DNA of 64,000 nt from a bacterium (lineage in GTDB: Bacteria > Patescibacteriota > Saccharimonadia > Saccharimonadales > Saccharimonadaceae): assembly GCA_030427525.1 (NCBI GenBank), contig JAUIBD010000001.1, forward strand, positions 18,628 to 82,627. The letters run 5' to 3'. Positions 6,659 through 45,928 of the stretch are shown here, piece after piece (the stretch's first letter is position 1; every line of letters begins with the position of its first letter). The translations under genes were made by a program, and so were the position numbers. The notes beneath the pieces are model-generated. The model saw nothing but the letters and a program-made list of their open reading frames with translations, was not told the DNA's origin and did not search any database.

Positions 6659-6725
6659 TATACTACTGTTTGCTAGGGGAGCAAAGCTACTTGCAAAATG
6701 TCACATAATGTGATAATATATAATT

Positions 6726-7751
6726 ATGGAATATGATGATTCAGAGCCAGTTGAACTCTCAATCAGCGACATAAAGGCACTCGAGGATCGAGAACGAGCT
6801 GTTTTAGCCACAGACGTGATTGAAGCGGCAGAGTCGGCCGTTGCATCACTAAGAATACAAAAAGAGCCTTCTGCACAACGGGACACACTATATTTCGAGC
6901 TGGACGAGTTGAATGCCGTGCTGCCACCATCACTATTGGGCAATCTTGCGGGCGGTACAACTTTGGAGAACGCTATCATCACGTTTGACCACAATTTAGA
7001 TGACAAAAAAGGTTCAATTTCTGTACGATTTGATTTAGCTAAGGAAACGGCTGATATGCTGTCTGTTGCTGTTGAGCTTATACCTTCTGTAGAACATGAC
7101 ATGTACGTTGCACTTATGCATATTGAGGGAGAGGATTCACCGATTGCACTGTTTGACCTTGTTCCTCGTACAGAGCTGAACGTATTCTTTGCAAGTATAT
7201 TTTCGCGCTCTAAGACTGGTAAGTATGATGCCTTCAAGCAAATACCGCACAACGAACTCGAGGTTTTACGCCGTCTGCTCGACGCTTTGAGCGAACATAC
7301 AGATGACCACATGTCCGAATCGACCTACATAGAAGGCTGGGCAGATGATGAAAAGACGATACCAATCAATCCTATCCAAGTCAACGAAGACTGTGGACAG
7401 ACCATCAGAATACAGGCTGAAAACAGTAAAGCCCCTCAGCGCAGAGTAATGACGATAGAATTCGACCAAGAGGGCAAACCCTACAGTGAAGGAGATGAGC
7501 TAGACCCTAATTCGATCGACGGTATACGCATCTATGAACCTTCAAACGATCCAAACATAGAGCACACAGCAGAAAGACCTAGTACCGAGCACCTCGTTGA
7601 GTTTTTGGATTTCTTTAATGGAATAGCTCCCATGTCCGAGACCGAAAGCGAGATCCCTGCCGGTGCCATGCTTGATCTACCCGACTCGCAAACAATGAAC
7701 ATTGAAGATTCTAGAGAACTTTCGCCCGAAGAGGATTCTACGCTAGAATAG
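6726..7751 (+). CDS. Hypothetical acidic protein (341 aa)
   Basis: It is the longest ORF at this locus, and its 3' end overlaps the alaS 3' end by 14 nt in convergent orientation. No motif was recognised. Confidence 0.55.
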   Translation: MEYDDSEPVELSISDIKALEDRERAVLATDVIEAAESAVASLRIQKEPSAQRDTLYFELDELNAVLPPSLLGNLAGGTTLENAIITFDHNLDDKKGSISVRFDLAKETADMLSVAVELIPSVEHDMYVALMHIEGEDSPIALFDLVPRTELNVFFASIFSRSKTGKYDAFKQIPHNELEVLRRLLDALSEHTDDHMSESTYIEGWADDEKTIPINPIQVNEDCGQTIRIQAENSKAPQRRVMTIEFDQEGKPYSEGDELDPNSIDGIRIYEPSNDPNIEHTAERPSTEHLVEFLDFFNGIAPMSETESEIPAGAMLDLPDSQTMNIEDSRELSPEEDSTLE

Positions 7752-9708
7752 CCTTGATGCGTCGGATTCCGGCGCTTGAGGCTTCTTCTCTTGTAATCTT
7801 GAATTTCTTGCCATCCTCAAATAGTTGCAGTGTGTGATCGACATGTGGCCCGCCACAAATTTCGAAGCTAAATGGTCGCTCATGTGCGGGCGATTTCTCG
7901 TCCTTCATGCTGTACACCTTTACAGTGTCGCCGTAGCGGTCGCCGAATTGACCTAGTGCACCTAGCCGGCCGGTGGCTTCTTCGGTAGGATATTCTTTAA
8001 AACTAATCTGCAAATCTTTGGCAATTTCGCGGTTTACAATTTCTTCTACTTGGTCCAGCTGTTCACGAGTCACCTTTTCAGGGTGTGAAAAGTCGAAACG
8101 TAGGCGCTCTTCGGTAATATTACTGCCCCGCTGGATTACGTGGTCGCCCAAAACATCACGAAGTGCCTGGTACATTAGGTGGGTTGCAGTGTGGTATTTC
8201 TTGTGCTGCATGGTTTGCCCGCCCAAGCCGCCTTTGAAGGTGCCTTTGGCTGCGGTTTGTGAACGCTGGCGCTGCTCGGCCATTTTCGCGTCGAATTCTT
8301 CACGCCAATTTTCAGATAGTCTCACAGTGGCAAGTTTGTTGCTCTGGTTTAATTCCTCATCAGTAACAGGCGGATTGATTGCTATGATTTCTGCTGTTAA
8401 TTCAGGAGGATAGCCATACGTATCATACGCCGTGAAGACTTCTTCACCAGACATAACTCGCACTCCATCATGCTCCTTGCCAGAAGCAAGTACAAACTTT
8501 AGGCCCTTCCTCAAGGTCTGTCGGAAAGCTTTTTCTTCCTTTATTAGCACAGCGATGACTTCCTCGCGTTTTTCTGCCACTTCTGGGAAATCATCGTGGT
8601 AAAGGTCGGCAATTACTGGCACTACTTCTTGTAAGAAGTTCTGCTCGATACCCAGTTCGAACGCGAAACGAATTGCGCGGCGTAGCAAGCGTCGCATGAC
8701 GTACCCCTGCTCTTTATTGCTCGGCACGCAGCCGTCTACTGCCAGGAAGGTTGCGGCGCGTAAGTGATCGGCAATCACCCGCATAGCATTGGTGTGACTG
8801 TCGTAGCTTTTACCACTTAGCTTCTCCAGCTTTTCAATAATCGGCCACATCAGACTAATCTTAAAGACATCTGGGTCGTCTAATTTAGCAGCTGCAATGC
8901 GCTCTAGGCCAGAGCCGTGGTCTATATTCGGCTTCTCCAGTGGCTCAAACTTGCCATCTGCCACTTTTTTATATGCCATAAACACATTGTTGCCAATTTC
9001 TAGGAAACGGCCGCAGTCGCAGTTCGGGTGGCAATGCTCACCAAATTCTGGATTGTGTTGCGTACCAAAATCATAAAACATTTCACTGTCTGGGCCACAC
9101 GGGTCGCCAATTGGCGTGCTCTCAGGCGCACCGTTGCGGCTCCACCAGTTTTTGCTGCCATCATAAAAGAAAATACGTTCGCCATCCTTTATCCCCCGCT
9201 GGTAGCCAGCTTCTTCGCTGCCGACATCTGCTTGACCGCTGGAAAGGCCTTTTTCGTCGAATAATTTTGCCCATACATCAGCGGCTTCGATATCCTTTTC
9301 AATATCGTACTCCGGAGCACCGATATAGCAGGTGATATAAAGCTTGCTGGCATCAAGTCCCACAACATTTGTCAGGAAATCCCACATCCACTCGATTTGC
9401 TCTTTTTTGTAGTTTGCCGGATTTCCGCCCATATTCCAGTTGCCCAGCATTTCAAAAAAAGTCGTGTGGCGGTTGTCGCCAATTTCTTCAATGTCCATCG
9501 CTCGCAGACACGTCTGACTGTCGACGATTCGATTGCCTTCTGGGTGCTGCTCGCCCAGCAGATAAGGAATAATCGGCTGCATGCCGCTGCCGGTAAATAG
9601 GGTGGTAGGGTCATCGTGAAGCACTAGCGGCGCGCGTTTTACGATAGCATGGCCACGATCTTCAAAGTACTTTAAGTACGCGTTGCGAATTTCTTGAGCA
9701 TTCATCAC
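7738..9708 (-). CDS. alaS: Alanine--tRNA ligase, short form (656 aa, no C-Ala domain)
   Basis: N-terminus IRNAYLKYFEDRGHAIV...TLFTGSGMQP...FFEMLGNW, editing-domain HTATHLMYQAL and CGGPHV. A GTG at 9708 is followed directly by an ATG at 9705. Confidence 0.9.
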   Translation of the reverse strand: MMNAQEIRNAYLKYFEDRGHAIVKRAPLVLHDDPTTLFTGSGMQPIIPYLLGEQHPEGNRIVDSQTCLRAMDIEEIGDNRHTTFFEMLGNWNMGGNPANYKKEQIEWMWDFLTNVVGLDASKLYITCYIGAPEYDIEKDIEAADVWAKLFDEKGLSSGQADVGSEEAGYQRGIKDGERIFFYDGSKNWWSRNGAPESTPIGDPCGPDSEMFYDFGTQHNPEFGEHCHPNCDCGRFLEIGNNVFMAYKKVADGKFEPLEKPNIDHGSGLERIAAAKLDDPDVFKISLMWPIIEKLEKLSGKSYDSHTNAMRVIADHLRAATFLAVDGCVPSNKEQGYVMRRLLRRAIRFAFELGIEQNFLQEVVPVIADLYHDDFPEVAEKREEVIAVLIKEEKAFRQTLRKGLKFVLASGKEHDGVRVMSGEEVFTAYDTYGYPPELTAEIIAINPPVTDEELNQSNKLATVRLSENWREEFDAKMAEQRQRSQTAAKGTFKGGLGGQTMQHKKYHTATHLMYQALRDVLGDHVIQRGSNITEERLRFDFSHPEKVTREQLDQVEEIVNREIAKDLQISFKEYPTEEATGRLGALGQFGDRYGDTVKVYSMKDEKSPAHERPFSFEICGGPHVDHTLQLFEDGKKFKITREEASSAGIRRIKAILA

Positions 9709-13917: not shown

Positions 13918-14676
13918 TTATAGTGAAAACAGTGTGGTTGCGTTGTGGCTTGTTGTCTCGGCTAGTTCTTCAATGGCCACACCTCGCTGAATTGCGTGGT
14001 ATTGTGCGGTGAAGCTCACAAACGCTGGCTCATTTACTTTACCACGGTGTGGCAAAGGTGTCAAGAATGGTGCATCCGTTTCTAAAAGCATATGCTCTAT
14101 AGGGATGGATTCATACATTTTTCGTTGATTTTCGTCTTTTGTGAAGGTTGAAATACCGTTTACACCAATATAGAGGCCGTTCTCGAGGCCGCGCTGCATA
14201 TTTGACAAATTATCAGTAAAGCTGTGTAAAACGCCTCTTAGACCCGGAAAATTGTTAAATATAGGCCAAAAATCGTCAAACGCATCACGTACATGAAATG
14301 AAACAGGCAAATTTTGGTCAATCGCCCATTGAAGTTGCTGTTCAAGCACGGCAATTTGCTGCTCTTTTGGTGAATGCATGTAGTAATAATCGAGCCCAAT
14401 TTCACCTATACCTACAACTTTTTCATGCTTTTCTTTCAGTATTTCCTCTACTCGCACACAGCTGGTTTTGCTTTCATGTGGATGAACACCTACTACCGCC
14501 CAGCTTGCAGGATGCGTTTTTACAAAATCAACAGCCTCTTGCGACGACTGTTCGTTGGTACCCACACAAATCATGCGTACACCTGCATCAACTGCCCGTT
14601 TGTACGCGGCCTCCCTGTCTAAATCATTATAAAATTCTGATTCATGAATATGGCAATGTGTGTCTGTGTAGTGCAT
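13918..14676 (-). CDS. tatD: TatD-family metal-dependent DNase/hydrolase
   Basis: DTHCHI, GEIGLDYY, SFHVRDA, HSF and ETDAPFL blocks. Confidence 0.85.
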   Translation of the reverse strand: MHYTDTHCHIHESEFYNDLDREAAYKRAVDAGVRMICVGTNEQSSQEAVDFVKTHPASWAVVGVHPHESKTSCVRVEEILKEKHEKVVGIGEIGLDYYYMHSPKEQQIAVLEQQLQWAIDQNLPVSFHVRDAFDDFWPIFNNFPGLRGVLHSFTDNLSNMQRGLENGLYIGVNGISTFTKDENQRKMYESIPIEHMLLETDAPFLTPLPHRGKVNEPAFVSFTAQYHAIQRGVAIEELAETTSHNATTLFSL

Positions 14677-14680
14677 TCTG

Positions 14681-16168
14681 TTAGTTCGCTTTTTTTATTT
14701 GTGGATCTTGTGTATGTAGATATTTTTTAGGGAACATTACGCCATCTGAAGGCACAACAACCCCCGTTTCAAATGTTTGGTGAATATACTTCGCGGTTGT
14801 CGGCAAAAATGGCACCAGCAGGTCGGCTATTTGTAACAAATTGCCCACGCAGTGAGCAAGCACCTCAGATAAATGCCCTTCAGCATCTGGGTCTTTGTCT
14901 TTGCTTTTGGCTATTTCCCACGGTTTCACTTGTTCAATGTATTGGTTTACTGAACGCACCATTCCCCACACTTCATCTATTGCTTCATCAAATTTTAATT
15001 CATCCATGGCACGACGATAATTTTGCATGTCATGTTCGCCCTGTGGCGCATCACCAATCACACCAGCCTGGTACCGAGTTAGCATGTTTGATACGCGACT
15101 TACTGAGTTGCCAAGGTCATTAGCAAGTTCGGTATTGTACGCCGTTTCAAATTTCTCCCAGGTAAAATCTCCGTCATCTTGAGTAGGAATGTGGCGTGCA
15201 AAAAAGTAGCGGAAGGCATCGGCACCATAGTTATCGATAATCTCCATCGGGTCAACCACGTTCCCCACCGTCTTGCTCATCTTGGCACCGCCCACATTTA
15301 CAAAGCCGTGTACCAGTAGTTTCTTTGGTAGCGTTACTCCGATACCAAGCAGCATCGCTGGCCAGATACCCGCGTGGAAACGTAAAATATCTTTGCCAAT
15401 TACTTGCACATCGGCCGGCCAATAGTCACGCCATTCGGGTTTATCAGGGTAGCCAAGAACTGTAATGTAGTTTGACAAAGCATCGAGCCACACGTACATT
15501 ACTTGGCTATCATCGCCGGGCACAGGAACACCCCAACTCAAACTTTTTCGTGGACGCGAAATGCTGACATCCGGCAATCCGTCTTTCATTAGGTTGAGGA
15601 ATTCTTTTTTGCGAAACTCAGGCACGATTTCCATCTTGCCTTTTTCAATTGCTTCACGGATTTTTTCGCTAAATTCGCTGGTTTTTAGAAAATAGTTTTC
15701 TTCTGAAACATGTTCATATTTGGTTTGGTGGTCAGGGCACATGCCACCAGTTTCTTCTACCTCTTTGTCGGTAAAGAACGCCTCATGACCCATACAGTAC
15801 CAGCCAGTGTACGTATTCTTATAGATATGCGGCTGAAGTTGTTGCCAAATATACTGTACGGCACCTTTGTGATGCGGTTCGGTTGTGCGTATAAAATCTG
15901 TGTAGTCTGCACCAACTTTCTTCATAAGTGTTTCAAAATTCACATACATTTTATCGGTATAGGCCTGCGCGTCCATCCCAGCTTCAGCAGCTTTTGCGGC
16001 AATCTTATTTCCATGCTCATCGGTACCCACCTGAAAGCGAACTTCACGGCCGTTTTGTTTCTGGTATCGCGTCCAAATATCAGCCAAAAGGTAGTCGAGT
16101 GCATTACCAATATGTGGCGTACCATTTACGTATGGAATAGCAGTAGTAATGTAAAGATTTTTTCCCAT
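14681..16168 (-). CDS. metG: Methionine--tRNA ligase (short form)
   Basis: TTAIPYVNGTPHIGNA (HIGH region) and KMSKTVGNVV (KMSKS). Confidence 0.9.
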   Translation of the reverse strand: MGKNLYITTAIPYVNGTPHIGNALDYLLADIWTRYQKQNGREVRFQVGTDEHGNKIAAKAAEAGMDAQAYTDKMYVNFETLMKKVGADYTDFIRTTEPHHKGAVQYIWQQLQPHIYKNTYTGWYCMGHEAFFTDKEVEETGGMCPDHQTKYEHVSEENYFLKTSEFSEKIREAIEKGKMEIVPEFRKKEFLNLMKDGLPDVSISRPRKSLSWGVPVPGDDSQVMYVWLDALSNYITVLGYPDKPEWRDYWPADVQVIGKDILRFHAGIWPAMLLGIGVTLPKKLLVHGFVNVGGAKMSKTVGNVVDPMEIIDNYGADAFRYFFARHIPTQDDGDFTWEKFETAYNTELANDLGNSVSRVSNMLTRYQAGVIGDAPQGEHDMQNYRRAMDELKFDEAIDEVWGMVRSVNQYIEQVKPWEIAKSKDKDPDAEGHLSEVLAHCVGNLLQIADLLVPFLPTTAKYIHQTFETGVVVPSDGVMFPKKYLHTQDPQIKKAN

Positions 16169-16235
16169 TACGTCTCATTATATCAGAGGTAAAAATGTTT
16201 AACTAAAATTACTTTACGTATGCTATGCTACAAAC

Positions 16236-16844
16236 ATGAAAAAGCAAGCGTTAGTAGCAATATTTATAGTCGGCGCAATGATTCTGGCAGCAGTTGCCGT
16301 TGCTGCAAATTACCAAATGTTGTCGAAAGAAAATGAAGAAGTAGCAGAATCCGTGGCATCACAGAAGCTGCGTGAAGCACAATTTCAGTACTACGAGCCG
16401 TCATTCATACCTGGCAATCACCAGATACACCGCAAGCTATATACTCGTTCAGATCTACGTTCTGATGTCAGTGAATTTAGTGGCTATACAGATCAAATCC
16501 TTCTTTCACTCCATGAAGATAACAATGTATTTTCAATACTCGAGTTTAATAACGCGGATGGTACCTACGACAGGATTTCCGAGAGTCGAGGAAATAACGA
16601 AGATCCATCGTGCAGATTTGTTATTTCGCCAAAAGGCCAAAAGTACGAAAGTTGTATCGATGAATTCGAAAAGAACATAGAAACCACCATTCGTTTCAAC
16701 AAGGGCACTACCTACGTTGTTGCACACCTTGATAGCCATCCAATTAAATCAATATCAGCAAAAGAGCAGAATATGTTTGTTGATTCATTTGAGCGCAGTT
16801 CGGGTGTAGACCTCGATTACCGACTACTCAACGGTGCTGGCTAA
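16236..16844 (+). CDS. Hypothetical membrane-anchored or secreted protein (202 aa)
   Basis: N-terminal hydrophobic helix ALVAIFIVGAMILAAVAVAA. No other motif was found. Confidence 0.5.
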   Translation: MKKQALVAIFIVGAMILAAVAVAANYQMLSKENEEVAESVASQKLREAQFQYYEPSFIPGNHQIHRKLYTRSDLRSDVSEFSGYTDQILLSLHEDNNVFSILEFNNADGTYDRISESRGNNEDPSCRFVISPKGQKYESCIDEFEKNIETTIRFNKGTTYVVAHLDSHPIKSISAKEQNMFVDSFERSSGVDLDYRLLNGAG

Positions 16845-37248: not shown

Positions 37249-38400
37249 TTATTCCTGCTCAGCGACTTCGTCAACCTTTACGGGTAGCATGCCTTCCGCC
37301 TCCATCCTATCAAGAATGCCACGAGTCAGTTTGTTTCCCGACAACTGCAAAACATATTCTCTCCCATTCGGCTTGAGGGTTCGTATGAAATTTTGTTTGC
37401 GCATTTTCGCTAAACGCTTCGATATTACAACGTGCGAATAGTCTTCTGGCCATAAGTCTTTAATATCACCAGCCTTTATCCTCTGCTTGCGGGCAAGTCT
37501 GTTTAATATCTTGGTTTCGATATCATTAGTTATATTTTTTTCATTTGCCCACAAGAAAGTTGGCATAAGTAAGCGGTCTTTAACGAAATTTCTATCAGCA
37601 AGTTTTTGAGATTTTTTGATTTCATCTTGAAGGCCTTCAAGTACATATTCACACCACTCCTGCATACTTTCTTCTCCACCCTCATCTGCAATCGAGAGCT
37701 TATCATAGTATTGCTCCCTATCTCCGGCGAAGACTGATGTCGGATTAAAAAGTCGCGCTGATCCTGGGGTGATAAAACCTTTTTTACATAGCATGCTATA
37801 GGTTAACAGTCTGACGGCTCTTCCATTCCCGTTGCCGAAAGGATGTATCCACACAAAGCGATGATGTGCCACAGCAATTTTTAGCAAATCCACTTTTGGA
37901 TCACAGTCTTCGTTAATATAATCAAATAGTTCGTCCATTAGATCTTTAATGTCTGAGGGTTGTGGCAATACGTGTTTGGAGTTTGCGATTTCGCGATAGT
38001 CAACACGGTATGATCCCGGGCGTGTGTCGCCTTCATTGTCTGGTGAAAGGTTCTTCACAACCATCTCGTGTAAATGCGATATGAACCTCGCATCAATTTT
38101 TGTCTCAGCAATATTATCATCAATGAACTCCAGAGCCTCTATTAGATTTGAAATCTCGATTAGCTTTTCGTTATCGGTATCTTTTTTATCTAATTTTCTC
38201 TCAACAAAGGTGGCGAGCGTAGTATGATTTCCCTCAATTCTCGCTGATGACAACGCTTCAACTATATGAAAAAGGTTCTTTAACTCGTAAAACACCCATG
38301 GTTCTGTACTGCCTGACACTCCATGATTGCGTAACTGCTGAAGCTCGACAATTATATCCGTCAGTTTTGAATTAAATGTTGGTGTAGGCGTAACTATCAT
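37249..38400 (-). CDS. fic: Fic-family protein (Fic_N, Fic core and a C-terminal winged-helix-like tail)
   Basis: Core motif HPFGNGNGRAVR (HxFx[DE]GNGRxxR) and the N-terminal SSARIEGNHTT block. Confidence 0.85.
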   Translation of the reverse strand: MIVTPTPTFNSKLTDIIVELQQLRNHGVSGSTEPWVFYELKNLFHIVEALSSARIEGNHTTLATFVERKLDKKDTDNEKLIEISNLIEALEFIDDNIAETKIDARFISHLHEMVVKNLSPDNEGDTRPGSYRVDYREIANSKHVLPQPSDIKDLMDELFDYINEDCDPKVDLLKIAVAHHRFVWIHPFGNGNGRAVRLLTYSMLCKKGFITPGSARLFNPTSVFAGDREQYYDKLSIADEGGEESMQEWCEYVLEGLQDEIKKSQKLADRNFVKDRLLMPTFLWANEKNITNDIETKILNRLARKQRIKAGDIKDLWPEDYSHVVISKRLAKMRKQNFIRTLKPNGREYVLQLSGNKLTRGILDRMEAEGMLPVKVDEVAEQE

Positions 38401-38425
38401 CTACTCCAATTGTAACTTAGTGTTT

Positions 38426-38493
38426 ATGAATATGTAACCTTTACCGTCATTTTATAGATGAAATATGTAACCATAAGCATAACCATATGTACC
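38426..38493 (-). repeat. Direct repeats GGTTACATAT(T) upstream of fic
   Basis: Plus-strand ATGAATATGTAACC (38426-38439), ATGAAATATGTAACC (38458-38472) and a partial copy CCATATGTACC (38483-38493). Confidence 0.6.
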
Positions 38494-38517
38494 CTAACTC
38501 ACATTGCAGACTCGTTT

Positions 38518-38581
38518 TGGTGATTCCGCGGAGAATACTGAGTTATATCTTCAGCGCAATAGAGAAAACTAAGAGGTAGCT
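38518..38581 (-). repeat. Degenerate copy of the tRNA-Glu 3' end plus about 45 nt of flank (copy d)
   Basis: TGGTGATTCCGCGGAGAATACTGAGTTATATCTTCAGCGCAATAGAGAAAACTAAGAGGTAGCT aligns along its whole length with 41168-41232. Confidence 0.7.
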
Positions 38582-38642
38582 CCCGCGGAGAAGAACGCTT
38601 CAAATCTACATCTACGCAGAAATGTGCGAACTAACCTCAATT

Positions 38643-39251
38643 CTAAATGTCTCGAGCATACAGGGTTTGCTGTACACCGGCAATTGGAGCGCCAGTGCGA
38701 CGCGTGCTTGTGAAACCATGGCCTAGCAAAATCGGCACCGCAGGATCATTATCTGTAGCAGAAACCAAAAGTCGCACTTGCTCTTCACGGGCTTCGCATG
38801 CCGCATGTCGAACTAATTTTGTAAGAATTTGGTCTCTTCGCTCAGGCGAAAGTGCGTGCTCGGCAGAAAGCTGAAATATACTGAGTGGTCTGTCTGGTCT
38901 ATGATAATTACCAACTAGAGTTCTGGCCCGGTTTATGACTTTACCAACACCACGGCTGAATGGTGCATCATCTGCACGATTCCACTCTGATAATTTCAGT
39001 ACTCCGTCTAGAGAACCATCCAGCCATGCGCCCATATACGCAAGATATGCCAGCTCTTCTCCTGTCTGCACACCACGCTCTAAGCTGTCTAGCTGCCCGT
39101 CAACCAGCTCGTCAGACCCGGGGTCTGCAATTTTTCTTGCTTCTTCTTCTGGCAAACCAAGGGTGTGCACCAAATCTTGCAGCACCAAAACTTGTACTCG
39201 CTCGGCGTTCTTGAGCGTTGGCTGTATTGGGGCTATATCTATACGCGACAT
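38643..39251 (-). CDS. Hypothetical protein (202 aa), possibly a degenerate GNAT-fold protein
   Basis: The C-terminal LLGHGF and a preceding helix resemble GNAT motifs A/B, but the Q/RxxGxG/A signature is not intact. Confidence 0.4.
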   Translation of the reverse strand: MSRIDIAPIQPTLKNAERVQVLVLQDLVHTLGLPEEEARKIADPGSDELVDGQLDSLERGVQTGEELAYLAYMGAWLDGSLDGVLKLSEWNRADDAPFSRGVGKVINRARTLVGNYHRPDRPLSIFQLSAEHALSPERRDQILTKLVRHAACEAREEQVRLLVSATDNDPAVPILLGHGFTSTRRTGAPIAGVQQTLYARDI

Positions 39252-39302
39252 GTTAGTAGATATTAATGACAGTGTTTGGTAATTTTGTCAATGGAATAGC
39301 TG

Positions 39303-39316
39303 CTGGTGACCTCACG
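39303..39316 (-). repeat. 14-nt exact copy of the tRNA-Glu 3' end (copy c)
   Basis: TGGTGACCTCACGG is identical to 41356-41369. It is embedded in a CTGGTGA...TCACCAG inverted repeat. Confidence 0.6.
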
Positions 39317-39389
39317 GTTCCAACGCTTCACCAGATTTTTTGCTAGGCTTTTTAAAACATGGTATCGTATGTGTAAGCGAGAGACACGT

Positions 39390-39513
39390 TCACGCTAGCA
39401 GGAAGGGGGTGGACCCCCATGATGGAGACCGGTTGGGACCAGGACTGACCTGGACACCGCCAGGGTGGGACGGCAGCACGCTGTCCCACCCTGGCCCGCG
39501 CCCTTCTTGCGCA
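39390..39513 (-). other. GC-rich foreign DNA fragment with a 12-bp GC hairpin
   Basis: Hairpin CCAGGGTGGGAC (39459-39470) / GTCCCACCCTGG (39482-39493). The 13-mer GCCCTTCTTGCGC (39499-39511) is identical to the 3' end of the 83-codon ORF at 41690-41702. Confidence 0.6.
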
Positions 39514-39620
39514 CACTTATACAAATGTAAGTTGTACTGATGAGTTCAAAAGAACGAAAAGTGTGTAGCAGTATATGATAGTTGCTAAAGTGTAAATAAT
39601 ATGCTATTGTATATCTATCT

Positions 39621-40613
39621 ATGCACTATGCGATGGAATCATTTACGGGTGTCCGCCCCACCGCTGACTTGACGGTTGCCAACTATATTGGTGCGGTCAA
39701 GCCAATTCTTGACGCCGAAGAAGCAGAACCCGACGCTCAGTCGGCTGTGTTTTTAGCAGAAATACATGCTGCCACCACGGCTAACCCTCGCGATGTGGCC
39801 GTGCACTCGCGTGAACTGACTCGAACGCTAATTGCAAGCGGCTACAACGGTGAAATTTATAGCCAGTGGGACATAGAAGACCTAGTAGGCCCTACCGAAC
39901 TATCGATTCGGGGATTGGTGAGTGTTGCCCGCCTGTTGAGGCTGCCAACGCTAAAAGACAAAGTTGGTGGTGATGACAAGATTGATACGGCGCCAGTAGA
40001 CCTGGCTATGTACCCTATGATGATGGCTGCAGACATAATTTTAGCGCGGCCTGAGTTTGTTCCAACCGGAAAAGACCAGTTGCCACACCTTGAAATAACC
40101 CGTGAAATAGTGCGTGCCCATAATGCTAAATACGGTACAGAACTACCTATGCCTGAAGCAAAAAATGTTGACCCCATTAACATCGGTACTCTGAGTCGTC
40201 ATGAAGGCAAAATGAGTAAAACCGAGCCTAAGGGTGCAATATTCCTCGGCAACTCACCAGACGAAGCGAGAACAAAAATCATGAAAGCAGTTACTGCGTC
40301 TGGGCCTGGAGCTGAAATGGACGCAAGGATAGACAACCTACTAACAATTGCCCGTGGCCTTGCATCTGCATCTGATACTAGACTGGATGAACTGACGGAA
40401 CTTGCCGATGCAGTGAAAGCGGGCGAACCACAAACACCAACATTCAAAGATGGCGTAGCAGAAATTACAGGTGATTTTATAGCTGACCTGCAGGAACGAC
40501 GTGACAGCGTGAGTGACAGCGAGGTTGATGAACGTCGATCGAGAGGTCACGAGTGGATTCGACCAATAGCAAGCGCAACGCTAGATACTATAAAAACGTC
40601 ACAACGAACGTAA
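39621..40613 (+). CDS. trpS: Tryptophan--tRNA ligase (divergent)
   Basis: TVANYIGA corresponds to the TIGN/HIGH-type motif of bacterial TrpRS. Also present are YPMMMAADIIL, VPTGKDQLPHLEITREI and KMSKT. Confidence 0.7.
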   Translation: MHYAMESFTGVRPTADLTVANYIGAVKPILDAEEAEPDAQSAVFLAEIHAATTANPRDVAVHSRELTRTLIASGYNGEIYSQWDIEDLVGPTELSIRGLVSVARLLRLPTLKDKVGGDDKIDTAPVDLAMYPMMMAADIILARPEFVPTGKDQLPHLEITREIVRAHNAKYGTELPMPEAKNVDPINIGTLSRHEGKMSKTEPKGAIFLGNSPDEARTKIMKAVTASGPGAEMDARIDNLLTIARGLASASDTRLDELTELADAVKAGEPQTPTFKDGVAEITGDFIADLQERRDSVSDSEVDERRSRGHEWIRPIASATLDTIKTSQRT

Positions 40614-40635
40614 AACACAGGGTGGCTCACGACGT

Positions 40636-41157
40636 ATGGCGCTGGAAATAACGAAATACGGTGGGAAAAGCGAGCTGCCAACTAGCGTTGGCGATGAATT
40701 AGCTGTGTTGTTTGCCAACAATTACCCACCGAACTATGCCCCACCCGTAGAACGCAATGATCTTGCTGCCAGAGAAGATGCTTCAGCGATTCAAAACCTA
40801 TTAAACCGTGGTCGGACATATTACCTGGGCACGGCAGGTTGTCGGCTAGCTGGGTTTCTTGAGTCTAGAACACTCGACCAAGATGATGATACAACCGTTG
40901 AACTGATGACGTGGTTGATGGTTGATGAGGCACATAGAGGCAACGGTGTTGCAACAAGGCTTCACGCTGCATTTATAGCTGACGCGATGCTACGCGCCAG
41001 ATCACGCTTGCCCAAACCAACTGTGGCACGGCTGGGTGTTCACAACGAAAACCCTGCACGTGCTATGTACGAACACTGGGGCTATAGCGACGATGGCCAC
41101 CCCGAGAGCGCGCCCGAGATCATACTTATGAGCAAACCGCTTGTACCTGAACTGTAA
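40636..41157 (+). CDS. GNAT-family N-acetyltransferase
   Basis: Motif A LMVDEAHRGNGVATRLHAAFI and the C-terminal YEHWGY. Confidence 0.7.
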   Translation: MALEITKYGGKSELPTSVGDELAVLFANNYPPNYAPPVERNDLAAREDASAIQNLLNRGRTYYLGTAGCRLAGFLESRTLDQDDDTTVELMTWLMVDEAHRGNGVATRLHAAFIADAMLRARSRLPKPTVARLGVHNENPARAMYEHWGYSDDGHPESAPEIILMSKPLVPEL

Positions 41158-41167
41158 TGTGCATTAC

Positions 41168-41238
41168 TGGGTGACCTCACGGGGAATACTAAGGTATATC
41201 TTCGGCGCAATAGAGAAAGCTAAGAGGTAGCTTTCTCT
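41168..41238 (-). repeat. Copy of the tRNA-Glu 3' end (19 nt with one extra G) plus flank and a 9-bp hairpin (copy b)
   Basis: TGGGTGACCTCACGGGGAAT compares with the tRNA's TGGTGACCTCACGGGGAAT. The flank is shared with copy d. Hairpin AGAGAAAGC (41212-41220) / GCTTTCTCT (41230-41238). Confidence 0.75.
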
Positions 41239-41252
41239 ATTTGCTTCTCGCT

Positions 41253-41287
41253 ATCGCACCCCGATTGCTTGCCATTCTGGCAAGTCC
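41253..41287 (-). pseudogene. Decayed tRNA-Glu fragment (T-arm and anticodon-arm-like region)
   Basis: ATCGCACCCCGATTGC matches tRNA-Glu 41373-41388 (ATCGAACCCCGATTGC) at 15 of 16 positions. The adjacent TTGCCATTCTGGCAAG forms an arm-like hairpin. Confidence 0.5.
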
Positions 41288-41322
41288 AATCGGAATTCGG
41301 TTCCGCCGAGAGTGTTGCCAAA

Positions 41323-41353
41323 GTAAAAACGCCACCGATGGTGACGTTTTTAC
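41323..41353 (-). terminator. Intrinsic terminator directly after tRNA-Glu
   Basis: A 14-bp stem with one mismatch, GTAAAAACGCCACC-GAT-GGTGACGTTTTTAC, followed on the minus strand by TTTGG. Confidence 0.65.
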
Positions 41354-41355
41354 TT

Positions 41356-41430
41356 TGGTGACCTCACGGGGAATCGAACCCCGATTGCCAGGATGAAAAC
41401 CTGGTGTCCTAACCGTTAGACGATGAGGCC
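41356..41430 (-). tRNA. tRNA-Glu (anticodon UUC), CCA encoded
   Basis: A cloverleaf can be drawn: acceptor GGCCTCA/TGAGGTC, D arm GTCT..GGAC, anticodon arm CCAGG-TTTTCAT-CCTGG, T arm CGGGG-TTCGATT-CCCCG. Confidence 0.9.
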
Positions 41431-41686
41431 AAAATATGAGTGAAACGGCCACGAAATCTGCTTGCATATTTCTGGACATTTCCGAGTATTTTGGAGCTCA
41501 TATGGTCTGAAAGATCCATATGAGGTTTGTTTGTAAGGTGCTGGCACAAAGCCATATTTTTAGCCTACCCTGCGGTAGACTTCAGTTATTCTACCAAAAA
41601 AACGACCCCTTGGAAAGAGCCAAGAGGTTATCGCAGGTGCGGGGGGCGCCGGTGTGAACCAGCGCCGCCCCCGCACCGTAGAGGCG

Positions 41687-41938
41687 TCAGCCCTTCTTGC
41701 GCTTGCGCCGCTTGCCGGTGACGCGGGCGACGTTGCCGTCGATGATCTCAGCGTCACCGTTCTCGAGTGCGAGCTTCAGCAGATGCTCGATCCCGCTCTC
41801 CTCGGCGCCCGGGCAGCGTGCCGCGAGCTGCCGGGGGAAGTCCTGCGGCGAGCAGTTCAGGTCGTCGTGCTTGCCCCGGCGCCAGGCGTTGAACACCTTG
41901 GTGTCGTAGCAGTTCACCGCAACAGATGCGACCGCCAT
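41687..41938 (-). CDS. Small hypothetical protein (83 aa) encoded in a GC-rich foreign insert
   Basis: Almost every third codon position is G or C (atg gcg gtc gca ... aag cgc aag aag ggc tga). GAGGAG lies 8 nt upstream of the ATG, and a GC-rich hairpin follows the stop. The C-terminus is basic (KRRKRKKG). Confidence 0.6.
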   Translation of the reverse strand: MAVASVAVNCYDTKVFNAWRRGKHDDLNCSPQDFPRQLAARCPGAEESGIEHLLKLALENGDAEIIDGNVARVTGKRRKRKKG

Positions 41939-41999
41939 CTATACCACTCCTCGTGGGGGTTGTGCACGTGAACCCGGGTTCCCGGCGTGCAATGTAGTT

Positions 42000-42027
42000 A
42001 CTATACAGCGAAAAAATAATATGTCAA
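42000..42027 (-). promoter_or_regulatory. AT-rich promoter upstream of the GC-rich ORF
   Basis: On the minus strand, TTGACA (42027-42022), a 16-nt spacer, then TATAGT (42005-42000). Confidence 0.5.
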
Positions 42028-42162: not shown

Positions 42163-43302
42163 ATGCGAAGCAAGCTATTTGGGTTTGTCCTAGCACTAGT
42201 AGCGGTAGCTACAATCGGGGTGGTACAACAACAAACAAACGCGGCCCTACCCGGCCAAGTTGGTGACGCGCCCAGGTGTACGGTAAAAGCCGTAGGTGCC
42301 CGCGCAAGCGCCTTTACTGTAAACGGCGGCAATGCCAAAGTGACATTCAAGGTAACTGGCGACAAAAAATGTCGCGTACAGCTCTCTACCAATTCGTTTT
42401 ATGCACCGAGCATGAATGGTCGCCCCTATGAAAAACAAACTCTATTCGACCGCCAAACCAAAGTATTTGGCCCTGGCCAGCACACCATGAGTGTGGCTGT
42501 ACCTACCAAAAGTACCAAAGCAAAAGGCTGCTACTACCAGCTAGATCTAACCTACGGCACACGCAACGTACTACCTGTACTTGCCTATGCGCACGGCAGA
42601 GTAAACTGCGAAGTAGTCGTACAACAAAACCCTGTGGCGCGCTGTACTGGCCTGAAAGTAGATACCATTAGCCGCACAAAATTCAGCCTGACTGGCACAG
42701 CGATGGCTCGTGACGGCGCCAAGATAAAAGGCTACACCTTTAAGCTTGTACAAGGTGGATCTGTAGTGAAATCAAAAACCATCACTACCAGCGCAAAAAC
42801 CGCTACTACCACTATGGTACGTACGGTACCTGGCGATTACAAAGTGCGCCTAACAGTTAGCACATCACTTGGTGACCGCACCAGCGCAAACTGCGTGGTA
42901 AACCTAACTATCCCACCACTGCCACCAGAACCACCAGTGGTGTACGTGAAGGTATGTGACCCTGAAACTGGGGAAACGCTGACAGTAAAAGAAGGTGAAG
43001 AAGATGCCTATGTACCACTAGGCGACCCGGCTTGCGAAAACGTGCGGGTATGTGTACTCGAAGATGGCACCTTTACCACAATTAAGCAGTCTGAGCTTGA
43101 TAGCAACAGTGAACTATACAGCCTAGACCCCGCTGATTGCGAAGAGACAGAAGAGCCACCAGTTGAAGAGGAATACTACGACTACGAAGAAGTAGAGGAA
43201 CTACCACAAACTGGCCCTGCCGACACCTTGCTGCAGGTAACAGGTGCGATCAGCTTGGCTGCTGCTGGTACCTACTACTGGCTAAGTCGCCGCAACGCGT
43301 AA
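42163..43302 (+). CDS. LPXTG-anchored surface protein (379 aa), short paralogue
   Basis: GAGGAGG SD, signal peptide MRSKLFGFVLALVAVATIGVVQQQTNA, one Ig/PKD-like module, Cys-bracketed repeats, then LPQTG, a hydrophobic helix and RRNA. Confidence 0.8.
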   Translation: MRSKLFGFVLALVAVATIGVVQQQTNAALPGQVGDAPRCTVKAVGARASAFTVNGGNAKVTFKVTGDKKCRVQLSTNSFYAPSMNGRPYEKQTLFDRQTKVFGPGQHTMSVAVPTKSTKAKGCYYQLDLTYGTRNVLPVLAYAHGRVNCEVVVQQNPVARCTGLKVDTISRTKFSLTGTAMARDGAKIKGYTFKLVQGGSVVKSKTITTSAKTATTTMVRTVPGDYKVRLTVSTSLGDRTSANCVVNLTIPPLPPEPPVVYVKVCDPETGETLTVKEGEEDAYVPLGDPACENVRVCVLEDGTFTTIKQSELDSNSELYSLDPADCEETEEPPVEEEYYDYEEVEELPQTGPADTLLQVTGAISLAAAGTYYWLSRRNA

Positions 43303-43318
43303 ATAGCTAGGAACAATG

Positions 43319-43350
43319 AATAACCCTTCTCGCTTGAGAGGGGTTATTTT
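43319..43350 (+). terminator. Intrinsic terminator after the first LPXTG gene
   Basis: A 13-bp stem, AATAACCCTTCTC-GCTT-GAGAGGGGTTATT, whose 3' end runs into a T-rich stretch. Confidence 0.7.
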
Positions 43351-43459
43351 AGTATATTATGCAATGTTTATACCCTATAATTTCGCTATAATACATAACC
43401 ATAATCTGTAAATGGAAAATATAAAGGTTGTGCTTATTTGACAAAAGTTGTATAAAGTA

Positions 43460-43488
43460 TTGACATTTTTATATTTTTGTGATAGAAT
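43460..43488 (+). promoter_or_regulatory. Consensus-like promoter of the second LPXTG gene
   Basis: TTGACA (43460-43465), a 17-nt spacer, then TAGAAT (43483-43488). Confidence 0.6.
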
Positions 43489-43558
43489 GCCATGTAAGCA
43501 CCTCGAAAGAGGTGGGAGGACACTATTAACTTTATTACACCCTGTGAGGAGGAATGTA

Positions 43559-45928
43559 ATGAAAGGTAAACTATTTGGGTTTGCGCTTGCGCTTCTTTCT
43601 GTAGCCACCATTGGTGTGGTTCAGCTTCAGACTAAAGCGTATGTCGACACAACCCCTGACTGTGACCAATACGCAGTCATCAAGTGTGGTACCGCTGGAC
43701 CAGCTCAGCTGCGTACAGAGTACGACACATACAACACTAGCTCGAGTAACGGTTCTACCGTTCGCCAGGGCGACATACACAAGATATTCAGCGCACTAGG
43801 TATTAGCCGTGCTGAACTAAACGGCACCTTTAAAACCGGTGTTGTATACCAAAACGGAAACGTGGTTGTAGGCGGTAAGGTAGTTGCTACCGACGCTCGC
43901 ATGGCAGCTCGTAACCTAGGTGGCACCGCGATTGCTGGTGCAAACGCAGGCATTATGTCTGTAAGCAAAATGGGTAGCGCCCAAGAAGCAATGGTAAAGT
44001 TTGACGCCAATGGCCGATTCCTTTTCGCCGTTATGACTCCTTGTGGTAACCCAGTTGCTGCAAAGGCTACACAGCCAAAACCAGTAGCAAAGTGTGAAAA
44101 CGTGAAGGTTGAAAAACTTGAACGTACTAAATTCCGCTTTACTGCTAGCGCAAGCGCTAAGTACGGTGCTAAAGTAACTGGCTACCAGTTCAAGGTGCTA
44201 CGTGGTTCAAGCGTTATCAAGAATGTAACGCAAAACTCAAACACTCTTACCTACAACCAGCCTAACGCTGGTGACTACAAGGTACGCGTGGTTGCCAAGA
44301 CATCACTTGGTGACAAAACCAGTGAGGACTGTGTAAAGACATTTACTGTACAAGAAAAGCCTGAAGCTTTCTGTAAGAATGTAACTGTGCAGACTATTAG
44401 CCGAACTAAGTTTAGCTTTACTGCAAAAGCATCTACATTCCGATCTCAGGTAACTGGTTACATCTTCCGTGTCTTCAAGGACGGAACAAAGATTGACGAG
44501 AAAACAGTAACGACTAGCAACCTATCTGCAACAGTTAACTACAGTCAAGCGACTGCAGGCGACTACACAGTAAAAGCTATCCTAAAGACGACCCTTGGTA
44601 ACAAGACAAGTGCTGACTGTGAAAAACCATTTAGTGTTACTCCTCCTGAAAAACACCCAGGCGTGAAGGTAGAAAAGACCGTGAACGGCGTTGAGCTTGC
44701 TCAGGTAGCCCTAAACGAGAACTTTACCTACGAGATTGCCGTAACGAACACTGGTGACGTTGACCTAACCAACGTAGATGTTGTAGATACTCCAGAAGCT
44801 GGCGTGACTCTAGCTCCTACACAAGCTGTAGGCACCGTTGCAAACAATACATGGAGCTACACTATTCCTACCCTAAAGGTTGGTGAGACTCAGAACTTTA
44901 CCCTCAACGCTATGGTTCCTGAATACCTAGCTGGTAAGATTAAGAACACTGTATGCGTAGACACTACCGATGTTCCTGGTGAACCAGATGACTGTGACGA
45001 CGCGTATGTAGAAGTACCAAAGCCACACGTAAAGATTAACAAGCTGGTTGACGGCGTAGACTACAAACTAGTGGGTGTAAACGTAGAGTTTACCTACCAA
45101 ATAGCTGTAACCAACGACGGTAAAGTTAACCTAAAGAATGTTAAGGTAAGCGACCAAGCTCCTGCTGGTGTTACCTTCCTAGCAGCAAGTGCTGGTACGG
45201 TAACTCCTACTAGCTGGAACCACACGATTCCTGCCCTAGCAATTGGTGAGACTCAGAACTTTACGATTACTGCGAAAGTTCCGAACCACAAAGACAACTC
45301 GATTGTAAACACAGCTTGTGTAGACGCAACAGAAGTTCCTGGAAGCCCAGACGACTGTGACGACGCAACGGTGGAAACCAAGAAGGTATACGTGTGTGAC
45401 CCTGCAACTGGTGAGATCATTAAGGTTGACCAGTCTGAAGCAGGCAACTACGAACCAGTAAACAGCCCTGCATGTAAAGATATCGTGGTTTGTAACCTAG
45501 AAACTAGCGAGATCGTTACTATCAAGCAGAGTGAGTACGACCAGAACTCTGAGATGTACTCTACTAACCTCGCTGACTGTGAAGAAGAAAACATGGTTCC
45601 TGTTTGTAATCCTGCAACTGGTGAGATCATCACTGTTACAGAAAGCGAAAAGGATAACTACCTTCCAGTAAACAGCGACGAATGTAAAGACCTGACGGTA
45701 TGTCGAGTAAGCGACAAGGCGATCGTGGTAATCAAGAAGAGTGCCTACGACCAAACTGTATACACGACTGACCTAACGAAGTGTGAAGAAACACCTGTAA
45801 CTCCACCTCAGCCACCTGTGAAAGAACTCCCAGTAACTGGTGCTGCAGATGTAGTTGTGAAACTAGCTGGTGCTACTTCACTAGCCGGTGCTGGTGCATA
45901 CTACTTGCTAAGCCGTCGCCGCGACTAA
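43559..45928 (+). CDS. LPXTG-anchored multi-domain surface protein (789 aa), long paralogue
   Basis: GAGGAGG SD and signal peptide MKGKLFGFALALLSVATIGVVQLQTKA. It has two Ig/PKD-like modules, two DUF11-like repeats (VEKTVNGV...NFTYEIAVTNTGDVDL; INKLVDGV...FTYQIAVTNDGKVNL) and Cys-bracketed VC(D/N)PATGE repeats. The C-terminus is LPVTG, a helix and RRRD. The ORF track's 43448 start is an in-frame extension. Confidence 0.8.
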   Translation: MKGKLFGFALALLSVATIGVVQLQTKAYVDTTPDCDQYAVIKCGTAGPAQLRTEYDTYNTSSSNGSTVRQGDIHKIFSALGISRAELNGTFKTGVVYQNGNVVVGGKVVATDARMAARNLGGTAIAGANAGIMSVSKMGSAQEAMVKFDANGRFLFAVMTPCGNPVAAKATQPKPVAKCENVKVEKLERTKFRFTASASAKYGAKVTGYQFKVLRGSSVIKNVTQNSNTLTYNQPNAGDYKVRVVAKTSLGDKTSEDCVKTFTVQEKPEAFCKNVTVQTISRTKFSFTAKASTFRSQVTGYIFRVFKDGTKIDEKTVTTSNLSATVNYSQATAGDYTVKAILKTTLGNKTSADCEKPFSVTPPEKHPGVKVEKTVNGVELAQVALNENFTYEIAVTNTGDVDLTNVDVVDTPEAGVTLAPTQAVGTVANNTWSYTIPTLKVGETQNFTLNAMVPEYLAGKIKNTVCVDTTDVPGEPDDCDDAYVEVPKPHVKINKLVDGVDYKLVGVNVEFTYQIAVTNDGKVNLKNVKVSDQAPAGVTFLAASAGTVTPTSWNHTIPALAIGETQNFTITAKVPNHKDNSIVNTACVDATEVPGSPDDCDDATVETKKVYVCDPATGEIIKVDQSEAGNYEPVNSPACKDIVVCNLETSEIVTIKQSEYDQNSEMYSTNLADCEEENMVPVCNPATGEIITVTESEKDNYLPVNSDECKDLTVCRVSDKAIVVIKKSAYDQTVYTTDLTKCEETPVTPPQPPVKELPVTGAADVVVKLAGATSLAGAGAYYLLSRRRD

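Follow-up and report, generated by a model that had tools for sequence, protein, structure and literature searches.

A probable insertion hotspot with recombinase-less remnants at the 3′ end of tRNA-Glu(UUC) in a Saccharibacteria genome

Site-specific accretion and cis-mobilizable elements (CIMEs) have been described for streptococcal integrative and conjugative elements (ICEs); CIMEs usually measure several kilobases and can be traced back to an identifiable ICE. Integron arrays and clusters of attC sites lacking integron-integrases (CALINs) consist of small promoter-less or single-gene units with structured, imperfectly palindromic sites of ~60 to 150 nucleotides (nt), and the integrase can be missing. 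The attC sites conserve structure over sequence, and the attP site of CTX phage is a folded single strand. In Dehalococcoides, islands lie in tandem at ssrA, their boundaries being marked by ~20 bp copied from the 3′ end of this gene; insertion is in the T-loop, and a serine recombinase of ~540 amino acids (aa) is encoded on the reverse strand beside attL; 15 of these islands have no integration module and were read as cis-mobilizable or fixed remnants (McMurdie et al. 2011, PMC3146451). The CIME concept is cited in the same paper (PMC3146451). In the tycheposon islands of Prochlorococcus, serial integrations leave partial tRNAs and push older elements deeper, and the integrases are tyrosine recombinases with a minority of large serine recombinases (Hackl et al., 10.1101/2020.12.28.424599). 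Here, we describe positions 38519-41430 of a 64-kb stretch of DNA from a Saccharimonadales (Saccharibacteria) genome, the whole of which is called the window below. These positions form the tRNA-proximal part of a locus that is probably an insertion hotspot at the 3′ end of tRNA-Glu(UUC), occupied by remnants without a recombinase.

Downstream copies of the tRNA-Glu 3′ end

The tRNA gene and its partial copies are listed from the gene outward.

41356..41430, minus strand: tRNA-Glu(UUC), intact, CCA encoded, called by ARAGORN and by Rfam (tRNA, 62.4 bits); putative hotspot target (attB side)
41188..41232, minus strand: flank F, the 45 nt that immediately precede copy (ii) when read in tRNA sense; partner of 38537-38581 in the direct repeat D1
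41170..41187, minus strand: copy (ii), an exact 18/18 match to tRNA positions 57-74 (last T-loop bases to acceptor end)
39304..39317, minus strand: copy (iii), an exact 14/14 match to tRNA positions 62-75
38519..38581, minus strand: degenerate copy (iv) at 38519-38536 (13/18) with flank F′ at 38537-38581; distal end of the array

ARAGORN and Rfam agree on the tRNA as the initial annotation of this DNA had placed it, and every copy lies on the tRNA strand and on the 3′ side of the gene. The repeated part spans the T-loop/T-stem to the 3′ end in the same orientation as the tRNA. The nearest copy, first described as 19 nt at 41168-41187, is a real and exact 3′-end copy but covers 18 nt at 41170-41187; at up to three mismatches, the sole matches in the 64 kb are copy (ii) and the tRNA, with 0.03 expected by chance. 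Copy (iii) was correctly recognized as an exact 14-nt copy and only its coordinates shift by one base, to 39304-39317; its chance expectation in the window is 0.00. No further tRNA copies were found elsewhere in the 64-kb window. Between copies (ii) and (iii), which share 13 nt as a direct repeat (CCGTGAGGTCACC), lies a 1,865-bp block that carries trpS.

The degenerate copy (iv) reported earlier is located at 38519-38536, within D1. Its 13/18 match alone is not significant, and the copy is credible because it terminates the 63-nt repeat D1 (38519-38581 versus 41170-41232), which is 86% identical (49 nt at 92% in a second comparison). The ~45-nt flank that had been noticed beside copies (ii) and (iv) is confirmed, with F and F′ identical at 41/45 positions (91-92%), suggesting that the innermost, non-coding module next to the tRNA and the distal block carrying a 202-aa open reading frame (ORF202) derive from related elements. 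Within an inserted unit, flank F acts as the right arm. A further piece, fragment (i), had been taken for a decayed displaced copy. Its match exists (41253-41268 versus 41373-41388, 15/16, E value 0.03-0.09; real but weak), but it is an arm of a palindromic stretch in the non-coding module and not a displaced 3′ end.

About 30 Saccharibacteria loci were compared at tRNA-Glu (L0xx are locus labels). Searches with TrpS and the histidine kinase assign the window to Saccharimonadales, and the exact 75-nt tRNA query retrieved 27 species-level genomes with a 75/75 identical gene, nearly all labelled Saccharibacteria. Additional loci were found through contigs encoding homologues: L036 and L038 (TrpS 64% identical), L043 (the L022 contig, found via the histidine kinase at 77%), L048 (histidine kinase 70%) and L044-L047, which are near-identical strains. 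The closest relative, L022 (GCA_030431855.1; histidine kinase 77% identical in amino acids, core DNA 70-75%), is syntenic with the window across 16 kb. Downstream copies were counted in 21 identical-tRNA relatives with at least 190 nt of flank. Eight of them have a 3′-end copy of 11-22 nt, located 132-187 nt past the tRNA, and the longest (22 nt) start in the T-loop at T55. Taken together, the copies in the window and these eight relatives start at tRNA positions 54-62 and end at 68-75.

Could these repeats be chance similarities or assembly artefacts at a repeated tRNA? Fragment (i) and the 13/18 match of copy (iv) are weak alone, and short-read contigs of several samples break inside the tRNA. 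Against this stand the chance expectations given above for the 18-mer and the 14-mer and the length and identity of D1, by which the repeats far exceed chance. Moreover, positions 39222-41384, which take in copy (iii), trpS-GNAT, copy (ii) and the module, recur at 100% identity in contig L001, assembled independently from a different sample (ERR3428546), so an assembly error in the present contig does not account for the arrangement; the feature is also present in many independent assemblies. Besides ERR3428546, samples SRR33155353, SRR33155355, SRR33155356 and SRR33155357 contain this organism. This explanation is effectively refuted. As for the breaks themselves, contigs L001 and L044 stop at window positions 41384 and 41406, inside tRNA-Glu, and near-identical Logan contigs, examined for strain-level alternative junctions, also end inside the tRNA. 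Such breaks are expected where co-occurring Saccharibacteria share sequence, with hotspots being systematically fragmented in metagenome-assembled genomes.

Under the preferred explanation, an insertion hotspot, incoming units with their own T-loop-to-3′-end copy would recombine site-specifically with the same segment of the tRNA. Each event would rebuild an intact tRNA from the incoming copy and displace the older 3′ end downstream, and later units would also be able to enter at a displaced copy. The three surviving displaced ends would then delimit three units, namely the 168-nt module, the 1,865-bp trpS block and the ~770-bp ORF202 block. When excised, a circle of the trpS block would carry the junction ...GCGTTGGAA-CCGTGAGGTCACC-CAGTAATGCAC... 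We infer that a site-specific recombinase made the junctions, that the units arrived in a certain order and that they are now immobile. The units (41188-41355, 39318-41169 and 38537-39303) are bounded by tRNA 3′-end copies and have no recombination or transfer genes, as is the case for CIMEs; the only proteins that they encode are a GNAT, TrpS and a GNAT-fold ORF. They are fossils or at best cis- or trans-mobilizable remnants, none encoding a recombinase. The core of the initial proposal, serial integration at the tRNA 3′ end, is thus supported as a hotspot, with corrections in the details of fragment (i), the module and the trpS block.

Variation of the site and recombinases in relatives

The 5′ side of the tRNA is syntenic among relatives, with genes for FolD, a response regulator, a histidine kinase and surface proteins. 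On the 3′ side, a conserved VIT1-GH5-pyk-pgk-tpi block is found at very different distances. GH5 (L010) or pyk (L019) directly follows the tRNA terminator in empty sites. The number of genes between tRNA-Glu and the conserved block is 0 in L010 and L031 (GH5 immediate), ~5 in L048 and ~12 in the window, where the block is reached only after 13 kb (27978 down to 22782). The cargo differs in L048, L020 and L022. An invariant, fully syntenic interval would have spoken against the initial proposal, and the content from the tRNA to VIT1/GH5/pyk instead differs from species to species.

The comparison of relatives suggested at the outset also yielded, besides the empty sites, sites occupied by a recombinase gene. 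In L014 and L026, a large serine recombinase of 560-577 aa (Resolvase, Recombinase and Zn_ribbon_recom domains) is encoded on the reverse strand and reads into the tRNA 3′ end, accompanied by a Replic_Relax gene, and L033 and L024 retain truncated C-terminal remnants of such recombinase genes. No displaced tRNA copy was found in L014 or L026 within the 5-7.5 kb available. An apparent fragment at +1709 in L024 was dismissed as a chance match, being part of a coding region of high GC content. The window itself has no recombinase gene, as noted at first: there was no tblastn match to the serine recombinases of the relatives, and Pfam detected none among the neighbours and the unassigned ORFs of 186-521 aa tested. 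Since no recombinase gene was found beside the tRNA in the window, its units are classed as remnants and not as elements. Flank F, the 22-nt tRNA core and the L014 recombinase gave no match in viral contigs. By analogy with the Dehalococcoides ssrA islands, a large serine recombinase acting in the T-loop would be the leading candidate for the enzyme, and a tyrosine integrase is also possible.

Alternatively, no site-specific recombinase was involved, and the array arose by local duplication, replication slippage, fold-back priming or homology-facilitated illegitimate recombination after natural transformation, with the tRNA as the anchor at which species would swap adjoining DNA. A tRNA that is identical at 75/75 positions in 27 species is an ideal homology anchor, the palindromic extension around the terminator resembles a fold-back product, the 63-nt D1 is long enough for RecA-type circle recombination, and no recombinase is found in the window. 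We nevertheless regard this explanation as unlikely. In several independent lineages, the copies stop at the tRNA 3′ end and the longest of them have their start in the T-loop, which is the signature of a site-specific attachment (att) core (PMC3146451); recombinase-bearing elements occupy exactly this site in L014 and L026; and slippage brings no foreign cargo such as ORF202 and the SoFic-like gene beyond it.

L049 (1-6600) and L048 (1-6300), two assemblies of one species (identical histidine kinase), differ upstream of tRNA-Lys: genes for a 555-aa serine recombinase, a methyltransferase and a restriction enzyme of the MvaI/BcnI type form a block in L049, and L048 has other genes at that place. 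This difference points to a second tRNA-adjacent insertion hotspot. On the 5′ side of tRNA-Glu, between it and the histidine kinase gene, two paralogous surface proteins of 379 and 826 aa with LPxTG-like C-termini and PKD/CLIPPER-like repeats are encoded (42163-45928, plus strand). The number and length of these surface proteins vary among relatives, and even between strains with 97.8% DNA identity (789 versus 826 aa).

Content of the three units

In the innermost unit, a 168-nt non-coding module (41188-41355), a terminator is combined with hairpins, flank F and half a tRNA that is inverted and degenerate.

41318..41358, no strand: palindromic terminator hairpin (inverted repeat I5, 19-nt arms, 95% complementary); the stem includes the tRNA CCA
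41253..41320, no strand: palindromic pseudo-tRNA stretch, with an inverted degenerate tRNA 3′ half at ~41286-41320, a hairpin at 41265-41283 and the direct 15/16 piece at 41253-41268
41209..41241, no strand: perfect 14-bp hairpin (inverted repeat I10, 100% complementary), inside which D1 starts

A terminator scan located the terminator at 41330-41343, directly after the tRNA. Its hairpin lies between an A-run and a T-run and may therefore be bidirectional; an equivalent hairpin was found in every module-bearing relative. The direct piece at 41253-41268 (D5) copies the variable-loop/T-stem segment, and self-complementarity reaches 79% over 100 nt at 41290-41387. The possibility that the opposite strand of the module carries a pseudo-tRNA gene was rejected, as ARAGORN gave nothing credible at low thresholds and Rfam nothing at E<=1. 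The perfect hairpin at 41209-41241 could terminate trpS-GNAT on the plus strand.

Modules of the same architecture occur in at least nine other species, eight of them with an identical tRNA, so the stretch between the tRNA and copy (ii) is not a window-specific islet. They share the order of a CCA-including terminator, TGG with an inverted degenerate T-arm/acceptor piece, one to three hairpins and the direct copy, and inverted T-arm pieces are located at the same offset in L018, L022, L023, L027, L029, L031 and L032. L048 has a variant tRNA-Glu, and its degenerate downstream copy matches its own variant 3′ end. An identical tRNA without a module is found in L010, L013, L015, L016, L019, L021 and L030. 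How do such modules accumulate? The last 22 tRNA nt plus the next 52 nt of L018 are 93% identical to the 22-nt copy of L023 plus 52 nt, indicating that L023 gained a 166-nt unit between the tRNA and the 22-nt copy. In L023, this unit is followed by another, internally deleted one, giving two or three units in series, and the series and its internal deletion indicate that units accumulate serially and decay. The two loci also differ in a larger rearrangement: pyk-pgk lies downstream of tRNA-Glu in L018 but is found upstream, in reverse orientation, in L023, and one breakpoint of this inversion falls at the tRNA-Glu array.

The recurrence of the module raises the question of whether it is a functional, selected part of the tRNA-Glu locus, with its 3′-end copy maintained by gene conversion and the trpS-GNAT adjacency ancestral. 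As a structured RNA or DNA element, it could, for example, insulate as a complex of bidirectional terminators, act as a decoy for processing, or belong to a 3′-untranslated region or an antisense RNA. In favour of such a role, at least 10 species have this architecture, the hairpins keep their position while their sequence changes (4/21 predicted pairs compensatory among three sequences), the L048 copy tracks its own tRNA variant, and the trpS-GNAT operon of the window and of L036 has the module in its 3′ region. Yet many species with an identical tRNA have no module, L023 has serial units of which one is internally deleted, the copies are 11-22 nt long and some have no CCA end, which fits decay and not constraint, and the module matches no Rfam family. 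A functional module would also leave copies (iii) and (iv) and the near-identity of ORF202 to L022 unexplained. We consider it distinctly unlikely.

The same architecture suggests another reading, which we find doubtful: modules of 110-190 nt would be recombinase-less miniature integrative elements specific for Saccharibacteria tRNA-Glu, and the hammerhead-trpS-GNAT block a cassette of the same machinery. Such modules might be recombined in trans, possibly as folded single strands by analogy with integron attC or CTX-phage attP. This reading derives from the conserved structure and variable sequence of the modules, from the inverted 3′-half start and direct 3′-end copy, which can pair into a stem mimicking the tRNA 3′ end, and from the serial occurrence of modules in L023 and beside both tRNA-Glu(UUC) and tRNA-Glu(CUC).

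The distal unit, the ~770-bp ORF202 block (38537-39303), holds flank F′ besides a GNAT-fold ORF, and a Fic gene lies beyond it.

38643..39251, minus strand: ORF202, 202 aa, of a ~200-aa family without a name, GNAT fold predicted; cargo of the distal block
37249..38400, minus strand: SoFic-like Fic-domain protein (Pfam Fic 1.1e-18; PADLOC SoFic 2.2e-47, residues 41-349); first gene past the last repeat

ORF202 had no match in Pfam, PHROGs, NCBIfam or PADLOC, neither exact-match contigs nor word-index homologues were found, and both the protein and a 33-nt ORF202 DNA word gave nothing against JGI metagenomes. Only an exhaustive HMMER search detected 70 remote homologues of ~200 aa. The AlphaFold2 model (predicted local distance difference test score 94.7) matches GNAT acetyltransferases only in Foldseek (best E value 3e-7, template modelling score ~0.6). 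This predicted fold rules out ORF202 as a small or decayed recombinase, and the GNAT-only structural matches suggest that it is cargo. Its DNA is 95% identical to that of L022, and ~99% in the coding part, compared to 70-75% for core genes, at the same type of junction, indicating that diverged genomes have recently shared it. In L022, the tRNA is followed in turn by a module whose sequence is unrelated to that of the window, an 18-nt copy, 11 nt and the ORF202 promoter. The orthologue of copy (iii) is thus fused directly to the module, and 11 nt later the same ORF202 promoter follows as in the window. Excising 1,865 bp between the 13-nt repeats of the window recreates this L022-type junction. 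As initially described, ORF202 is bounded by copies (iii) and (iv); it has a GNAT fold and is no recombinase. The L022 locus is interrupted by a single IS1595 element with an 8-bp target duplication, TCGTCATT. This IS1595-family element (L022, oriented, 5743-7762; L043, ~14440-16470) sits exactly between the displaced copy and ORF202 and has a Zn-ribbon and DDE transposase, a passenger gene with a P63C domain and terminal inverted repeats. The L022 contig ends at window-equivalent 39063, inside ORF202.

The translation of the Fic gene beyond the array has the active-site motif HPFGNGNGR and a nearly full-length SoFic profile match. It scores 46 bits against a cutoff of 550 for the NCBIfam SoFic equivalog and is therefore a relative of SoFic, not an equivalog. 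Its surroundings are of lower GC content (36-44%). Upstream of this gene (38401-38518), two to three copies of AATATGTAACC at 38428-38478 look like operator repeats.

The middle unit, the 1,865-bp trpS block, comprises a GC-rich gene remnant, a hammerhead leader, trpS and a GNAT gene.

40636..41157, plus strand: GNAT acetyltransferase, 173 aa (Pfam Acetyltransf_7/1/10), convergent with the tRNA; last gene of the block
39621..40613, plus strand: tryptophanyl-tRNA synthetase (TrpS), 330 aa, Saccharimonadales type (Pfam tRNA-synt_1b; TIGR00233 149.9 bits, below cutoff)
39512..39565, plus strand: minimal hammerhead-ribozyme motif of type III, located in the leader of trpS; cleavage is predicted between 39519 and 39520 (after A39519)
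39380..39512, no strand: GC-rich patch (~60-65% GC) with hairpin I8 at 39459-39495; far end of the block

The best relatives of TrpS are 64% identical, and a search of species genomes with the protein found no close relatives. In every Saccharimonadales TrpS examined, the class I HIGH motif is replaced by TVAN, so that the window enzyme is typical of its lineage; in the sub-clade with the hammerhead-GNAT context, TrpS has KMSKT instead of KMSKS. L036 and L038 (TrpS 64% and GNAT 48-52% identical) show the same order of GC-rich remnant, leader, trpS and GNAT. The L036 block ends 128 nt from tRNA-Glu(CUC), a different gene, with no clear displaced tRNA copy, and homology of its spacer to the window module was not demonstrable by comparison. 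In relatives with TrpS 53-59% identical, trpS lies in another conserved neighbourhood with no tRNA-Glu nearby. These arrangements suggest that the trpS block moved at least once and became associated with tRNA-Glu genes twice. Its entry by the same recombination, and the date of that entry, are presumptive; it may have been inserted long ago, and any order of events is tentative. The trpS-GNAT-GC segment is flanked by copies (ii) and (iii), as first described for this islet, but it is a conserved block also present in the lineages with TrpS at 64%.

All core nucleotides of the hammerhead motif are legible (CUGAUGA ... GAA, A15.1-U16.1, H17), with three stems (I, 5 bp; II, GUUC/GAAC; III, 7 bp), of which stem III is open. 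The motif occurs once in the window, compared to 0.05 expected, and is near-identical in L036 (20-73), L037 and L038 (24-77), with 95% of cells paired and two compensatory pairs among four sequences. Since Rfam Hammerhead_3 gives 22.9-24.4 bits, below the gathering threshold of 48.5, we call the motif hammerhead-like, and it does not count as a proven ribozyme. The idea that a T-box precedes trpS was rejected, as there was no Rfam match and the conserved leader is hammerhead-like instead. The literature searched contained no mention of a hammerhead in Saccharibacteria.

The GC-rich patch and 41637-41702 have GCCCTTCTTGCGC followed by a hairpin in common. The patch looks like the remnant 3′ end and terminator hairpin of a gene resembling the 83-aa gene at 41687-41938, and the L036 and L038 contigs begin in an equivalent GC-rich patch. 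Just 5′ of the tRNA, 41603-42027 has 66-69% GC in a genome of ~47% GC. The 83-aa GC-rich gene in this segment (minus strand) has its own near-consensus promoter (42027-42000) and terminators; it had no Pfam, PHROGs, NCBIfam or PADLOC match and no tblastn match in phage and plasmid collections. The GC-rich segments could be foreign DNA, e.g., from a high-GC host.

Several observations weigh against an insertion hotspot with remnants. The trpS block has no compositional anomaly, and the repeat around it is only 13-14 nt. The hammerhead-trpS block is conserved at 64% TrpS identity and in L036 adjoins a tRNA-Glu without a recognizable displaced copy, so it could be an old, vertically inherited arrangement. 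The kept position of the module hairpins despite sequence change would not be explained by a pure relic. The right end of the ORF202 unit is not comparable in L022, where the contig stops inside ORF202 and may have a chimeric end. Because L014 and L026 show no displaced copy, these serine recombinase elements are no more than candidate makers of the repeats. The window has no recombinase, and no excision junction was seen for its units in contigs that end inside the tRNA.

Significance and relation to described systems

Saccharibacteria have tiny genomes whose gene gain and loss are little described, and the locus indicates that in them the classical site-specific insertion at a tRNA 3′ end is at work, with units accreting and decaying. 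Among the genes gathered at the hotspot are accessory ones of adaptive type, for two GNAT-fold acetyltransferases and a SoFic-like defence protein; more unusual is a tryptophanyl-tRNA synthetase gene behind a hammerhead-like leader. The tRNA-Glu 3′-end copy is a practical marker for variable DNA in Saccharibacteria assemblies and explains the short-read breaks there. Interest would rise if the modules or the trpS cassette were mobile in their own right: should they be miniature elements, a gene for an aminoacyl-tRNA synthetase would travel as cargo, perhaps as a cassette for inhibitor resistance, in the reduced genome of an epibiont.

The likeness to integrons and CALINs, small units separated by structured sites, offers an idea only, since the separating repeat here is tRNA-derived and direct, IntI and attI are absent, and no integrase was found in the window. 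Prochlorococcus tycheposons share with the window tRNA-adjacent islands in a streamlined genome, full and partial tRNAs as att repeats and degenerated elements, whereas the window has neither a replication nor an integration module nor hallmark genes, and its units are far smaller. The Dehalococcoides ssrA islands agree with the window in having tandem units past one small RNA gene, 3′-end copies, the T-loop as the site and units without an integration module, and the reverse-strand recombinase of L014 and L026 (560-577 aa) resembles theirs by length and layout. However, the target there is transfer-messenger RNA and here the tRNA-Glu of a Saccharibacterium, and the window units are much smaller (0.17-1.9 kb), one being non-coding and one carrying a housekeeping-type trpS, with no recombinase remaining. 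With CIMEs, the window units have in common flanking repeats of the attL/attR type, the absence of recombination and transfer genes, and a tandem position at a site that recombinase-bearing elements use. CIMEs are usually several kilobases long and traceable to ICEs, and the window units are candidate CIMEs by this analogy, with the 95-99% identity of ORF202 between genomes that are otherwise 70-75% identical as indirect evidence for their possible mobilization by a recombinase-bearing element. Overall, tandem recombinase-less remnants at a tRNA 3′ end are a locus type already known, of which the case of tRNA-Glu in Saccharibacteria is a new member.

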